Origin: a virus
Lineage: Duplodnaviria; Caudoviricetes
DNA: 64,000 bases
Virus record (IMG/VR): IMGVR_UViG_3300031963_009887
Location: 24,080 to 88,079 of that record
Reading direction: 5' to 3' (one strand)
Below the pieces are notes generated by a model that saw nothing but the letters and a program-made list of their open reading frames with translations, did no database searches and had not been told where the DNA came from. The first letter of the stretch is position 1, and every line of letters begins with the position of its first letter. Made by a program: the position numbers and the translations under genes. This document shows, in pieces, positions 5,080 through 57,532 of the stretch.

Positions 5080-5919
5080 ATGATAACATTTTATGATGAA
5101 TATGTTCAAGGATTGTCGGGTGGGCATTTTTCAACGTTCAGAAAAAATTTAGGTAATAAATTATTTATTTACGGTGTAAGTAGAGTTGCGTCAGATATAT
5201 TAGATTATGATTTAATTTTACCACCAAACCCATTAATAAGACGGGAGTTAACTAGTGTGGGTAATTATGTAAATGAAAAATTTCCCTTTGGAAGTTTGAC
5301 GGGTAGAAAAAGAGTTGAGTCTCCAACAAAAACTATGGACGACATTGACCTTTTTAATTTTAACGGATTGGAAGGTTTTATTAATCAATTTAATAATCAT
5401 CATATTGAAGTGGTAGGATACTTTACAAAATATGATTATATCAAACCATATAAAGAAAAAATTCGTTCTTATTATTCAAGTTTGGTTAGACCAAAACGTA
5501 ATAATAATGATATGGTCATCATGCTAAGAAACAGTAGAGACGATGCTAGATTTGTATTACCGGATGACTATTATATTAATATTTTAGAAAATGAGTCATT
5601 TGATAAGTTATATGTTGGTTACGACCATTTATATAAACATCAAAGTCTAATCAGTAAAATTGAAAAATATAATCCGATTTATTTGGAGTCAGGAATCTTG
5701 GATATTTTCTCAGAGATAACATCGTTCAATAAAATTGTTGCTTGTCAAGGAACATTTTCATTTTGGGCAAGTTTTTTATCAAACGCAGATAAAATATATT
5801 GGCCAACAACTAACGATGGTCCCAATTCAAACAATGAAGTTTTTGCACAATTTGTTAACTTAAAGGTTGATGACGAAGACCGATACACTTTTGTACCAAT
5901 TAATAACATATATACATGA
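5080..5919 (+). CDS. GT11-like (alpha-1,2-fucosyltransferase-like) glycosyltransferase
   Basis: GYFTKY..., DYYINIL, IVACQGTFSFWASFLS (GT11-type C-terminal motif). Confidence 0.6.
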   Translation: MITFYDEYVQGLSGGHFSTFRKNLGNKLFIYGVSRVASDILDYDLILPPNPLIRRELTSVGNYVNEKFPFGSLTGRKRVESPTKTMDDIDLFNFNGLEGFINQFNNHHIEVVGYFTKYDYIKPYKEKIRSYYSSLVRPKRNNNDMVIMLRNSRDDARFVLPDDYYINILENESFDKLYVGYDHLYKHQSLISKIEKYNPIYLESGILDIFSEITSFNKIVACQGTFSFWASFLSNADKIYWPTTNDGPNSNNEVFAQFVNLKVDDEDRYTFVPINNIYT

Positions 5920-6911
5920 AAAAAACTATAAAATTATCTAGAGCTAGTTTCCCTGGTGTTGGAAATTTTTCTTGGATGAATTACTTTGTAAACATCCTAA
6001 ATAAAAAATATAATGTTGTGATTGACGCAATCAATCCGGACATTGTAATCTATACTAATCAATTTTATCGTGAAAACGAATTAGATTATTACACAAATGA
6101 AACTGTAAGAGGTATTCATCAATATGATGATTCTATTAAAAAAGTTTTTATTAGTGGTGAAGCTAGACCCGATTTTAACGCACATTTAAATAAAGGTGAT
6201 AACTATTATGTTTTAGGTTATGAACATATTGATAATGAGAGATATCTTAGGTTCCCAACTTTAGTATTAGATGCTTTTGTTTTACATAATGAAGGAGGAA
6301 TGTTTGACACACCATTTGATTGGTTAACCAAAAAAAGGGACGGGTCGAAGATACTCGAAAGTAAAAAACATTTTTGTAGTATAGTCCAATCAAGCAACAA
6401 TCCCGACAGAGAAAAATTGTTTGATTTGATTCAAGAGAAACATTTCATTAAATCATCAGGACCTTGGCGTAGAACAGTTCCCGACGAAGAAACACTAAAC
6501 CCTTATCAATACCACAATTATTCAAACAAAGAATACATGGGTAGAATTGATGGACTAACATATAGGGATAAGATTAATTTTTTCTCTGACACAGTGTTTA
6601 ACATTGCCTACCAATTTACAAATACTGATAATTTAACTCAAGAAAAAATTATACACGCTTACGCAGCAAATACAATACCATTATTTTATGGTAATCAATA
6701 TATTGAGGAAGAAGGATTTAATCCTAAATCTTTTATTAACTGTCACAAATTTGAAAGTTTTGAAAGTTTAGTTGAATTTTTAGATGAGTTATATAAAGAT
6801 AATGATAGATTAAAATCATATTTTGAAGAACCAATTTTTGTTGATAATAAATTACCAATTTATTTTAATGAGGATTACATTTTGAATTTTTTTAGTAAAA
6901 TTATTGAGTAG
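5916..6911 (+). CDS. GT10-like (alpha-1,3-fucosyltransferase-like) glycosyltransferase
   Basis: KHFCSIVQSSNNPDRE, KINFFSDTVFNIAYQ, LTQEKIIHAYAANTIPLFYG, FNPKSFIN. Confidence 0.7.
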   Translation: MKKTIKLSRASFPGVGNFSWMNYFVNILNKKYNVVIDAINPDIVIYTNQFYRENELDYYTNETVRGIHQYDDSIKKVFISGEARPDFNAHLNKGDNYYVLGYEHIDNERYLRFPTLVLDAFVLHNEGGMFDTPFDWLTKKRDGSKILESKKHFCSIVQSSNNPDREKLFDLIQEKHFIKSSGPWRRTVPDEETLNPYQYHNYSNKEYMGRIDGLTYRDKINFFSDTVFNIAYQFTNTDNLTQEKIIHAYAANTIPLFYGNQYIEEEGFNPKSFINCHKFESFESLVEFLDELYKDNDRLKSYFEEPIFVDNKLPIYFNEDYILNFFSKIIE

Positions 6912-15783: not shown

Positions 15784-17988
15784 ATGGCATTCATAATAAA
15801 AGATACAACAGCTCTAATAAACACCCAACTAACTGATGTTGGAAGAAGAAAAATTTCTCAAGGTAACTTTAATGTTGCTTATTTTCAGTTAGGAGATAGT
15901 GAGGTTTGTTATGATTGTATCAGCGGTGGTAATTTAACAACTTTACAAGTTTTAGTTCCTGAATTTAATTATCAGAATAACACAGGTGTACCACAAAGTA
16001 ATAAAATGGGTATTAAATATCCAATTTATTTGTCTAGTTCAACCGGTGAAACTAATACATTTGGTATACCTTTTCAAGATTCACAAGTAGTTCCAATTTT
16101 TAACACAGCTCAGCCAAGAGGATTTTTTACAGGTTCAACAGGAGCGTTTAGTGCTTTTACAAGTTCAGCACTTACCGTGACTGCAAATTATAAATTTAAT
16201 TTATCGGCATTAACAAGTGGGAATACATTTGATGTCACTGTCAACAACTGTGATGCTACTGTGACAGGAACACCTGAAGTTGGTCAGTTTGTTGTTTTAT
16301 ATTTAAATAATGATAATAACTGCGGTAATGATTTAACTTATCCATATCCTATTTTAACTTACAGAGTTGAAGATGTCGTTGGAAGTACAATAACTGTTGA
16401 TAGAATATTACCTGACTTTAGTTCATTTACAGGAACAGGAAGAGCGTTTTTCTACCCATCAGGTATGACACCATATTATGATAGTTATACACCAACACCA
16501 TACTATGATGGTGGTGTGTTTTCGTTTGAGTTGAATTGTGAAATTCAACAACAAGATGTCTTAGTTTGGAATATGAATCAGCCATGGACCGAATCACCAG
16601 CAGGTTTATCATATACTTTTTACAAAGATTTCAGTGAATTTGGTTCAACGGGTTATTCGTCGACAAAAGAATTCTTGGGATATCAAACCAAAGGTGGTCA
16701 AATTTTCGAAGACATAAATTATGTTTCAGGAACAACTGACACATTTTATTACAATTCATTTGATGAAAAAATATATGTTGAACCAGAGGAACAAAAAGTT
16801 ATTGGTTTGATACATTATACCAATCAGGGTATTGATAATTTTTATGGTGAGAAATTTGCAACAGAAGCATTTGACTTGGCAAATTCAGGTGCCACAGGAC
16901 AAGGAAGAAACTTTAAACTTGACTTACCAACTTTGATGTGGCATAAATCAAATACAGGTGTTATGGGTGAATCATTCTACGTTGACCCTGATGGTTTTGA
17001 TGGTTTAAATTTATTTCAACCACATTATATGTTATCAGAAGAAAATGATAATATGAATTATCCGGGTTTACGTTATTATCACTTATGGGATACTCACGCA
17101 AATGCTGATGGATATCCAAACAGAGTTGGTAAAGTATTTCCTGATTTGAAAATGATAGCAATTGATGATGAAGAATTATCAGCCGCCATGTCGTATAAAT
17201 CAAATAGAAACTATACATTACCCGCACCAAGATTAGGATTGGTGGTTCCAAACACGTTTAACCAAAACATCGCGGCAACAAGTGGTATATTAACAGGTGA
17301 TACTGAAACAATGTTTGTAACATACCGATTTGAAAACACTGGTTCTACAAATGGTTTACATTGTAACTATTACTCAAAAATTGCAGGTTCAACCGTAAGT
17401 GGTCAAACAGATGATGTAATTGTGAGATTTGGTAATGAATTCCCATTCTTAATTGAGGACATGGGTTTACAACCTTCAGGATTTACATGTACTAATGTTA
17501 AGTTAATTTGTCAAATTGTACCAACGGGTGAAAGACCTGATTCGATGCAGTGGAGAGAAATTGATGTTACATCTGCAATTACAGCAAACACTGGCTCTAT
17601 CAATATTGGACCACTCGAAATAAGCGGAACAACATTTCAAATAACAAAAGACGAATACGATAACGCGAGTTTTTATAGATTAGAAAATTACATTGAATTA
17701 CCATTGATTAACTATAATACTGGTATGACGTTTGGTGATGAATATTTCTTTTATGGAACAGTTCATTCTGATGTACAAGCAACAATATATGAAATGAGAT
17801 ATTTGGTTAACCTTGCTGATTCACAATATATTCGTTCATCAAATCCAAAATGGTCGTTAGGTAAAGATGTGTATTTCACTGAAGTAGGATTATATAACTC
17901 TGACCAAGATTTATTAATGATGTCAAAATTACAGAATCCCGAAAAAAGACAAGGGGTACAACAGATTACCGTAAAATACGATTTTTAA
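15784..17988 (+). CDS. Large virion structural protein (tail/baseplate-associated)
   Basis: N-term INTQLTDVGRRKISQG..YFQLGDSE; C-term FTEVGLYNSDQDLLMMSKL; TATTTAT 15772-15778 upstream. Confidence 0.6.
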   Translation: MAFIIKDTTALINTQLTDVGRRKISQGNFNVAYFQLGDSEVCYDCISGGNLTTLQVLVPEFNYQNNTGVPQSNKMGIKYPIYLSSSTGETNTFGIPFQDSQVVPIFNTAQPRGFFTGSTGAFSAFTSSALTVTANYKFNLSALTSGNTFDVTVNNCDATVTGTPEVGQFVVLYLNNDNNCGNDLTYPYPILTYRVEDVVGSTITVDRILPDFSSFTGTGRAFFYPSGMTPYYDSYTPTPYYDGGVFSFELNCEIQQQDVLVWNMNQPWTESPAGLSYTFYKDFSEFGSTGYSSTKEFLGYQTKGGQIFEDINYVSGTTDTFYYNSFDEKIYVEPEEQKVIGLIHYTNQGIDNFYGEKFATEAFDLANSGATGQGRNFKLDLPTLMWHKSNTGVMGESFYVDPDGFDGLNLFQPHYMLSEENDNMNYPGLRYYHLWDTHANADGYPNRVGKVFPDLKMIAIDDEELSAAMSYKSNRNYTLPAPRLGLVVPNTFNQNIAATSGILTGDTETMFVTYRFENTGSTNGLHCNYYSKIAGSTVSGQTDDVIVRFGNEFPFLIEDMGLQPSGFTCTNVKLICQIVPTGERPDSMQWREIDVTSAITANTGSINIGPLEISGTTFQITKDEYDNASFYRLENYIELPLINYNTGMTFGDEYFFYGTVHSDVQATIYEMRYLVNLADSQYIRSSNPKWSLGKDVYFTEVGLYNSDQDLLMMSKLQNPEKRQGVQQITVKYDF

Positions 17989-17996
17989 AAAAAAAG

Positions 17997-18027
17997 TTTG
18001 TATTTATCAAAATATTCACTATCTTTG
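17997..18027 (+). promoter_or_regulatory. Bacteroidota sigma-A-type promoter (TTTG-N19-TATCTTTG) with TATTTAT (18001-18007) in the spacer
   Basis: Matches the known Bacteroidota -33 TTTG / -7 TAnnTTTG consensus. Confidence 0.75.
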
Positions 18028-18031
18028 TATA

Positions 18032-18215
18032 GTGAAGTCTGAAGGTTCTGAAGACTTAAATCAAAAGAACCTGATTGGAAAGGTTGAAGGTAACCCTCCC
18101 AATGAACCCGAAACAAAACCTTCTGAGCAAGTCCACCGCTAACTAGAACATTGTGGACAAGAGGTGGAGCCAAGTCTCACGACTTCTAAAAGAGGACCCA
18201 AAAGGTCCTCTTTTT
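18032..18215 (+). ncRNA. Putative structured small RNA of about 185 nt, family unassigned
   Basis: Own promoter and terminator, no credible ORF, more GC-rich than flanks; stems GAAGTC/GACTTC (18034/18181), AGGTTCT/AGAACCT (18043/18066), GTCCAC/GTGGAC, ATTGG..GGTT/AACC..CCAAT. Confidence 0.65.
18188..18215 (+). terminator. Intrinsic terminator
   Basis: aaaagaggacc-caaaa-ggtcctctttt followed by a T run. Confidence 0.85.
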
Positions 18216-18237
18216 AATTTATGAGTATTTATAACTA

Positions 18238-18762
18238 ATGAAACTACTTGGGATTCTTAACATATTGGTTGAAGAACAAATTGATAATCCAATTGTTGAT
18301 GTTACCTTAAATGATTATAAAATAAGGTTTATATTAAGTACTCATGCTCAAGAAAGAATGACAAGAAAAGAAAATGATTCAGATATAACAATTGATGAAA
18401 TCAAGTCGGCAATTAAAGACGCAATCCCAAAGATTACAAACAAAGCGTTTATTGTACAAAAAAGGGCAATACAAGGTCCAGTAATCGACGGAACCTTATT
18501 AAAAAAAGATTTTAGCTCAGGTCAAACTAGAAAAGAAAATTCACAAGAATTTTTTATTGTAAAAACAGATTCAGGATTACAAATTAGCTGTAAGGTGTTA
18601 AACTTTAATAAAAACAGAGGTGAAATTGAAATTATAATTAAAACATTAATGAAGAGTAACACAAATAAGTTAAACATTGATAACCCCCGTAGAAACACTT
18701 TACACTTGAATATTATTGAAAATATGGATGAGTTTGACAACTACTTCACAATCACAGTTTAA
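18238..18762 (+). CDS. Hypothetical protein with an S-T-H-A-x-E-R-M motif (RelE/DUF4258-like fold possible)
   Basis: FILSTHAQERMTRK..DITIDEIKSAI; TATTTAT 5 nt upstream; leader MKLLGILNILVEE. Confidence 0.5.
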   Translation: MKLLGILNILVEEQIDNPIVDVTLNDYKIRFILSTHAQERMTRKENDSDITIDEIKSAIKDAIPKITNKAFIVQKRAIQGPVIDGTLLKKDFSSGQTRKENSQEFFIVKTDSGLQISCKVLNFNKNRGEIEIIIKTLMKSNTNKLNIDNPRRNTLHLNIIENMDEFDNYFTITV

Positions 18763-25959: not shown

Positions 25960-26091
25960 ATGGAAAAGAAAGATTGGAAACAGGGTTTATCAGACGGACA
26001 CATCGCACAAATTGTTCGTAGAAAAAATGTTGTGAGGGTTGTAAAATCCAAAAAAGTATATTCAAGAAAACAAAAAACCTCCTATGATTAA
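25960..26091 (+). CDS. 43-aa basic peptide (..VRRKNVVRVVKSKKVYSRKQK..), weakly ArfA-like
   Basis: Hand-translated; bracketed by its own promoter and terminator. Confidence 0.65.
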   Translation: MEKKDWKQGLSDGHIAQIVRRKNVVRVVKSKKVYSRKQKTSYD

Positions 26092-56551: not shown

Positions 56552-57500
56552 TAGTCCCATTAGGGAAACGTTCTTTAAATTATGAGTATGTCCAATTCAG
56601 GACAAAAAAAATGGACCCCTCCATTCTAAAGTTCTGAATTGATAACAGACATAATTCGGCGGTTTAGCGTCGATACAAGATAACCCCAGTAATGGGACTA
56701 TAGGGGAGAAAGTACTCAACGGTACAAATATCTCGGTGTCACGAAAGTGGCTCACAACTAAACAAATTACCTACGAATAATTTCTTATGGGCAACAGCTG
56801 AGAGAAGTTATTTATCCTGACCACGTGAGGTGTCAGGGTTGAGATGGAGACATCAACAGGAAAAGGTAAAGGGAATGGTTCGACTCCGCCGCCAAGTGGA
56901 TGTAGGGCTAGGTCACCAATTTATCACAGGTATCCAAGTGGTAACACAACGATATCAAGATAAGTCGTAGTCTTGGCGGATTACAGAAAGGTGAGTGGTA
57001 TTTCCTTCTTCAAAAGAGAAGCTATCCACCTCAGAGCTCATCTTTCATTACACTCACTATGTTGATTTTATGAAAAAATAAAACTACAGAAAAGGAAAAG
57101 CCTCTGAGCGGTTAAACTGAAAGTCACCTAATTCCTTGAACGAAAGTTAACAAGGAAATTGACAGGACCCCAAGTCCTTCAGTTTTGACTAAGAAAGTCC
57201 TAGTACCTGGGCACGGGTTTAGGGAGTCCGCAAGATTCCATAGAGACAAGTAATAGTTGAGTAAGTTTAACCGAAACGATTGATTGACGTAAACAATCGG
57301 TGATGACTTGATACTGATGGCAACATTAGTGGATACGAGAGGAAACCTTAGTCGGGTATAATCTCTACAAAAGACAGGTCAACTAAACGAGTAATCTCAT
57401 CGTTTTAGCCAGAACCCCTTCAAGGATAGCATCCTTGAACCGACTTTGATTAAAGTTTCAAACCCAACCCCACGATAAACCAATTTCGTGGGGTTTTTTA
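56552..57500 (+). ncRNA. Large (about 950 nt) highly structured RNA, GOLLD-like or a new ornate class
   Basis: No ORF in the track, GC-richer than flanks, promoter and terminator; many hairpins with GNRA loops and long-range complementarities (see findings). Confidence 0.8.
57466..57500 (+). terminator. Intrinsic terminator closing the large RNA
   Basis: aaccccacga-N10-tcgtggggtt-tttt. Confidence 0.85.
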
Positions 57501-57532
57501 TTTGGTATTATCAAAAGTTTTTATTATCTTTG
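57501..57532 (+). promoter_or_regulatory. Bacteroidota-type promoter TTTG-N20-TATCTTTG
   Basis: ATG 57537 lies 4 nt after the -7 element. Confidence 0.75.

Follow-up and report, generated by a model that had tools for sequence, protein, structure and literature searches.

The stretch of DNA analysed here, referred to below as the window, comprises 64,000 nucleotides of a Caudoviricetes virus record in IMG/VR (IMGVR_UViG_3300031963_009887). Within it, a 250-nt gap separates a gene for a 734-aa fibre-like protein (15784-17988) from a 174-aa open reading frame (18238-18762) and holds the elements of a small transcription unit that we call RNA-A. A Bacteroidota-type promoter is present on the + strand at 17997-18027, with a −33 TTTG (17997-18000), a 19-nt spacer and a −7 box TATCTTTG (18020-18027), and transcription should start at about 18032-18035. 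The body of RNA-A (18033-18186) is ∼155 nt long, and the unit measures ∼185 nt when the intrinsic terminator is included. The latter (18188-18215, + strand) is made up of a hairpin at 18188-18214, with an 11-bp stem and a 5-nt loop, and a following TTTTT. The 174-aa open reading frame starts 22 nt after this T-run, and no promoter-like site lies between it and the terminator.

Sites of the form TTTG-N17-21-TAnnTTTG, which we take to be the Bacteroidota housekeeping promoter type, occur 14 times in the window against 5.7 expected, and none of 100 shuffled sequences had 14 or more. Nearly all of these sites are on the + strand. RNA-A would be made from a host-type, and presumably early, promoter. 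The original prediction had described TTTG-N19-TATCTTTG with TATTTAT inside the spacer, followed by a strong terminator, and all of these elements are found, the terminator being the hairpin and T-run given above. It had also taken the TATTTAT (18001-18007) as the mark of a second promoter. This motif is not enriched, however, with 42 occurrences in the window vs 46 expected, and the "dual promoter" is therefore unsupported. TATTTAT can be seen 10-25 nt upstream of many start codons in the window, albeit without overall enrichment.

The composition of the unit sets it apart from its surroundings, with a GC content of 43-48% vs ∼30% in the flanks, and the + strand of the RNA-A stretch folds better than shuffled sequences (z = −3.68). 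At the same place in related phages the terminator stems differ in sequence but are compensated, and that of lineage L005 includes a G:U pair that is compatible with the + strand only.

Scanning the whole window at Rfam gathering thresholds returned a single family, GOLLD (RF02032; 311.7 bits, E 2.4e-88), as a full-length RNA at 56986-57403 on the + strand, and none at RNA-A. The promoter after GOLLD (57501-57532) was considered as the start of another RNA and set aside, as it precedes a small open reading frame instead. For the contigs behind relatives L004, L005 and L002, CheckV equates 66 kb with 22%, 190 kb with 63% and 44 kb with 15% completeness, and the genomes are therefore ∼300 kb in size, those of giant phages. 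SprB-repeat and Bacteroidota promoter signals point to a probable Bacteroidota host.

A cmscan search of 17900-18320 against Rfam reported no family for RNA-A even at E≤10, neither 6S RNA (including the Flavobacteria 6S model) nor the abiF motif, which agrees with the description of the RNA as unassigned in the original prediction. No tRNA or tmRNA genes were found, and the GenBank phage collection holds no DNA match to RNA-A. Copies were gathered by protein-anchored and pattern searches of public collections, and further ones from contigs on which homologues of the adjacent genes are found. Eleven distinct copies were recovered, representing ∼7 lineages within one clade of freshwater phages. 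Scans of viral, metagenome and genome collections with patterns of the conserved blocks gave chance matches only beyond these close relatives; those in Pedobacter and Mucilaginibacter fall in transposase coding sequence and were discarded as chance. A covariance model (R1) detected no distant members in 61 primase-anchored loci of related phages or in the whole records of five relatives. We conclude that RNA-A is a new, previously undescribed RNA family.

The structure of RNA-A was judged on a MAFFT alignment (A5) of the copies and consists of a 5' H-type pseudoknot and three hairpins, P3, P4 and P5. Its 35 pairs are formed in 98.9% of alignment cells, compared with 30-51% in slid controls. 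Seven pairs have changes on both sides, a number reached in none of 500 shuffles, albeit one that stands for few independent compensatory events since the ∼7 lineages are mutually related. RNAalifold predicts P2 to P5 unaided. The search for homologues has yielded 11 copies with covarying pairs, and the claim of the original prediction, a real structured RNA with pseudoknotted pairings bounded by a promoter and a terminator, is borne out by GC content, z-score, copies and covariation alike.

The pseudoknot extends over 18036-18071 of the + strand and is built of two interleaving helices, P1 (18036-18040 with 18052-18056) and P2 (18044-18049 with 18066-18071), both with compensatory changes. 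One pair of P1 switches between U:A and C:G (five vs six sequences). P2 is 100% paired, with one pair changing from G:C to A:U and another occurring as C:G, A:U and U:A. Hairpin P3 (18074-18103, + strand) has an outer stem ATTGG/CCAAT, an inner stem GGTT/AACC and the loop GAAGGT; the outer stem is invariant, so that covariation neither supports nor contradicts it. The conserved single strand GAACCCGAAA comes after P3 and is followed by P4 (18131-18158, + strand), in which GTCCAC pairs with GTGGAC around a conserved loop motif AACTAG; P4 is 100% paired and shows compensatory changes in three of its six pairs. The 3' hairpin P5 (18161-18186, + strand), formed by GAGGTGGAG and CTCACGACTTC with two bulges, contains the invariant GTGGAGCC. 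It is likewise 100% paired, with one pair changing from G:C to A:U and one from G:U to A:U or G:C, and it is missing entirely from the RNA-A of the L005 lineage.

Several alternative or pseudoknotted pairings had been put forward in the original prediction. All of the segments listed are present, and the pairings of AAGTCT (18035) with AGACTT, of GGTTCT with AGAACC and of GTCCAC with GTGGAC are supported by covariation. The pairing of GAAGGTT with AACCTTC, in contrast, is broken in the L335/L332 lineage, and that of TCCACC with GGTGGA never covaries, though it can mostly still form. A further stem, GAAGTC/GACTTC, was to close the molecule by joining its ends. No covariation is seen in it, the L004 lineage has a mismatch and the L005 lineage is without its 3' strand, and that strand fits the local hairpin P5 better.

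The size and the closed ends had suggested a 6S-like RNA, that is, a decoy shaped like an open promoter that ties up the RNA polymerase of the host. The length of ∼185 nt is similar to that of 6S RNA, the ends are pairable in the window's own sequence, and RNA-A is predicted to be abundant and to be expressed early. In the cmscan search described above, however, no 6S model scored; the fold that is backed by covariation is a pseudoknot with three hairpins and not a rod with a central bubble; and the closing stem is not conserved and is the least supported helix of all. We find a 6S-like role scarcely credible.

An element that acts as DNA and not as RNA, for example a replication origin or a recombination site, would suit the location directly upstream of RuvC-like, primase and exonuclease genes, and inverted repeats could form in DNA as well. 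Against this, the G:U pairs are compatible with the + strand alone (P4 and P2 of lineage L004 have U:G and G:U, and P1 of L286 has U:G), a promoter and a terminator are present, and covariation within a pseudoknot is hard to explain in DNA. A function of the DNA itself is very improbable.

Indels of 1, 2, 4 and 5 nt separate the RNA-A relatives, and RNA-A is therefore not coding. A Shine-Dalgarno-like reading of GAGGTG was dropped because relatives have GAAGTG. Three of the copies are 98.7, 91.8 and 87.4% identical in nucleotide sequence to that of the window, where the neighbouring genes reach 85-89, 75-87 and 69-82%, and RNA-A is conserved above its flanking genes in three of four comparisons. 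As judged from its sequence, RNA-A is a real folded small RNA bounded by a promoter and a terminator.

The gene behind the terminator (18238-18762, + strand) encodes a protein for which a RelE/RegB-like (BECR) RNase fold is predicted. No Pfam, PHROG, NCBIfam-type or PADLOC family matches the 174-aa protein above threshold, and its own family is very narrow, with nine representatives only among 1.84 billion clusters; it is a new protein family. DUF4258 (PF14076) gives 13.7 bits at E 0.078, which is below its family cutoff of 25, and is the top sub-threshold match in 8 of 15 family members, with a best E of 0.037. The match covers a conserved H-A-x-E-R helix. DUF4258 belongs to the RelE/ParE (BECR) superfamily and is a toxin family yet to be characterised, in which the antidote gene normally lies upstream (PMC11980606), and it has been placed in the colicin-like BECR branch (2026 preprint). 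No ToxN-type Pfam or PADLOC family was found for the protein, even at permissive E-values. Searching the PDB by sequence profile gave one marginal match, to ribosomal protein L23 (E 0.029), and the ESM Atlas returned unnamed viral clusters only.

An AlphaFold (AF2) model of the 174-aa protein, computed from 19 sequences, has a pLDDT of 60.6 (core 65-88); an earlier model from a 15-sequence alignment was too poor (pLDDT 43). Foldseek places RelE, RelE1/2, HigB2 and ParE on top with this model, at a best E of 0.16. In a second fold search of the PDB, RelE is the best match over 92 of 95 residues with a Z of 5.7, a value too low to exclude a common arrangement. The top 30 rows of that search are almost all BECR toxins, with CdiA-CT RNases, ParE, YoeB, YafQ, HigB, BrnT, colicin D and T4 RegB (PDB 2hx6; Z 4.0 over 108 residues) among the other top rows; ToxN/AbiQ is missing from this list, which does not by itself exclude that family. 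BFVD matches are to uncharacterised proteins of large phages and to one T4-type (RegB-type) "site-specific RNA endonuclease". These scores are individually modest and they agree, and we therefore regard a BECR RNase fold as likely for the protein.

Among the relatives, what lies between the genes for the fibre and the RuvC-like protein is highly variable, and three versions of this slot carry an RNA. In the first, the single pseudoknotted unit RNA-A is found with subtype A of the protein behind the terminator (the 174-aa open reading frame, whose homologues have 56-100% identity). The second has an unrelated RNA of ∼100 nt, RNA-B, with the same promoter box and a protein of subtype B (166-185 aa), which is 17-21% identical to A and aligns with it end to end. 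The third has RNA-C, in which a 72-nt unit is present 1.9 times in tandem, and a protein of subtype C (P0187) that is 27% identical to A. The promoter box CACTATCTTTGTAT also heads the alternative RNAs in L003 (RNA-B) and L336 (RNA-C). Counting the loci for which upstream DNA is included, seven lineages combine subtype A with RNA-A, three combine B with RNA-B and one combines C with RNA-C, so that RNA type and protein subtype are matched in 11 of 11 cases and with zero exceptions. The subtype-A types preceded by RNA-A are those of the window, L330, L331, L332, L335, L004 and L005. Relative L327 is without both the RNA and the partner gene. A distant homologue, P0189 (L337), has no RNA within its 56 nt of upstream sequence and fits this pattern less well.

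The RNA had initially been described as a stand-alone unit. This does not hold, as each change of RNA type is accompanied by a change in the subtype of the protein encoded after the terminator, and RNA-A is therefore one half of an RNA-protein module. We propose that RNA-A is the cognate RNA partner, and a probable antidote or regulator, of the RelE/RegB-like 174-aa protein; with known RNA-antidote loci as the analogy, we would give this a probability of roughly 0.55.

Some further features of the relatives were observed. RNA-B is located at 5243-5380 in L003, 3322-3459 in L276 and 3311-3450 in L291, with the subtype-B protein always next; it is structured, and its three variants have some compensatory changes. 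RNA-C lies between the promoter box and a terminator at 509-647 of L336, and its two copies are 97% identical and differ by a compensatory change from GGGG/CCCC to GAGG/CCUC. Rfam has no match for RNA-B in L003 or RNA-C in L336. A 43-aa basic open reading frame of the window (25960-26091, + strand) has its own Bacteroidota-type promoter and terminator, and homologues of it (5242-5370 in L004, 3156-3287 in L291 and 346-477 in L336) are situated directly upstream of RNA-A, RNA-B or RNA-C, placing these RNAs in its 3' UTR. An ArfA-like reading of this small protein was rejected, since there is no ArfA match and only a weak one to DUF3173 (small HTH-like; E 0.026-0.079).

In two lineages the RNA and the partner gene are arranged differently, which speaks against a simple pairing of the two. 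The L004 lineage has an insertion of one or two genes that separates RNA-A from its partner; in L004 itself the insert (5582-6124) codes for a 180-aa protein of leucine-rich-type repeats (LGNL.SVGG.L.L), and L286 has two genes instead. In the L005 lineage the partner domain is fused behind a long repeat-rich N-terminal region. There RNA-A lies between two paralogues that contain internal sequence arrays (5756-6955 in L005 and 3949-5022 in L325), the second of which is a fusion of a repeat-rich N-terminal half and a C-terminal domain with 56% identity to the 174-aa protein.

Could RNA-A be a small RNA that acts in trans on its own account, whether by base pairing or as a protein sponge for host factors, and is next to the protein gene only because both occupy a variable "moron" slot? 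It has a host-type promoter and a terminator of its own, the RNA may lie in the 3' UTR of the small basic open reading frame in relatives, and the slot between the fibre and RuvC-like genes is indeed highly variable. But each RNA type is matched to its own protein subtype in all of the lineage-level cases, and complementarity of RNA-A to possible targets in the rest of the window is not above chance. We consider an independent small RNA decidedly unlikely.

A purely cis-acting leader, either an attenuator or a riboswitch, would sense a ligand or the downstream protein and gate read-through of the terminator at 18188-18215, with no role for free RNA. A promoter, a structured RNA, a terminator and a gene 22 nt further on are also the layout of a termination-type leader, and a change of RNA type along with protein subtype would suit autoregulatory leaders. 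The purine-rich AAGAGG (18158-18163) can furthermore pair with the 3' arm of the terminator, with a weaker equivalent in relatives. This candidate antiterminator is, however, a purine-pyrimidine complementarity of 4-6 bp, and no conserved or covarying antiterminator helix was found. In the L004 lineage other genes keep RNA-A apart from the gene that it would control, and the RNA of subtype C consists of tandem repeats, a form characteristic of RNA antitoxins that are processed rather than of leaders. The distinction is also not a strict one: cis and trans roles coexist in RCd22 (bioRxiv 10.1101/2025.04.15.648962), so that a leader function overlaps with the antidote or regulator proposed here. 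A leader alone is unlikely.

The reading of RNA-A as the partner of the 174-aa protein draws on its likeness to several known systems. In the type III toxin-antitoxin loci ToxIN, CptIN and TenpIN, a terminator keeps the RNA far more abundant than the toxin mRNA, and a pseudoknot of the RNA binds the nuclease. The locus described here has the same succession of promoter, non-coding RNA, Rho-independent terminator and ∼170-aa protein gene on one strand, and its RNA has a pseudoknot. It also shares with them an RNA that diverges faster than the protein and is partner-specific, and relative L336 has a classical tandem-repeat RNA. Unlike the type III antitoxins, RNA-A consists of one ∼155-nt unit where they have arrays of 34-45-nt repeats (18025-18220 contains no tandem repeat), the 174-aa protein is without a ToxN/AbiQ match and models as a RelE/BECR fold, and the host of the module is a lytic-looking giant phage rather than a plasmid or chromosome.

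The closest functional analogy to the RNA-A module is AbiF/RCd22. In the phi027 prophage of Clostridioides difficile, a non-repeat structured RNA neutralises a phage-borne toxin (bioRxiv 10.1101/2025.04.15.648962). The AbiF protein, however, has an Abi_2/HEPN-like fold, its RNA is different, and the Rfam abiF motif is without a match at our locus. The RelE/ParE type II modules represented by DUF4258 provide the best, though weak, sequence match and the best fold matches (RelE-like), and the antidote gene upstream of their toxin gene (PMC11980606) takes the position that RNA-A has here. They differ in that the upstream partner in our case is an RNA and not a protein, all of the scores are below family thresholds, and the 174-aa protein is ∼2 times as large as RelE, being extended at both its N and its C terminus. 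RegB of phage T4, which is among the fold matches, is an early phage gene product with a RelE-like fold that cuts mRNA at specific sites, but it has no known partner RNA and the likeness is one of fold only, at low scores.

By analogy with these systems, the architecture may represent a version of the type III or AbiF-like systems, which have RNA antidotes, that uses a different toxin fold. The papers searched contain no report of a BECR toxin fold in such systems. To our knowledge, known type III systems all have ToxN-like toxins and repeat RNAs, and RelE-type toxins are known with protein antidotes only.

A possible mode of action for RNA-A and its partner is as follows. Most transcripts would end at the terminator and leave RNA-A in large excess, as in type III toxin-antitoxin loci and AbiF/RCd22, and occasional read-through would yield a little of the 174-aa protein. 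The folded RNA-A may bind, restrain or regulate this nuclease, which would become active when the host-type promoter falls silent and RNA-A decays. Possible purposes are a RegB-like timed decay of mRNA or the exclusion of competitors. Binding of the two partners, toxicity of the protein and a benefit to a lytic giant phage are inferences; what such a phage would gain from a toxin-antidote pair is not obvious, and this speaks against RNA-A as an antidote.

A wider proposal takes in all three versions of the slot. The unrelated RNAs A (with a pseudoknot), B (with a three-way junction) and C (with tandem repeats) may each be the specific antidote of one subtype of a RelE/RegB-fold endoribonuclease and form swappable cassettes of giant Bacteroidota phages, in a type III-style arrangement on a BECR toxin that times the destruction of host or phage mRNA or excludes competing phages. 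We put this forward tentatively, as a possibility with the odds somewhat against it. The natural A, B and C cassettes would lend themselves to a comparison of specificity, with three RNAs set against three proteins.

Should the protein prove harmless, RNA-A would remain a new phage RNA that is well supported and whose pseudoknot covaries. If the partnership is real, a RelE/RegB-fold nuclease restrained by a pseudoknotted RNA of its own would bring the two classes of toxin-antidote system together, and a new structured RNA family would be added. It would also place modules of this kind in giant lytic phages, within a variable slot that is expressed early, and would bear on the timing of mRNA decay or on competition between phages.
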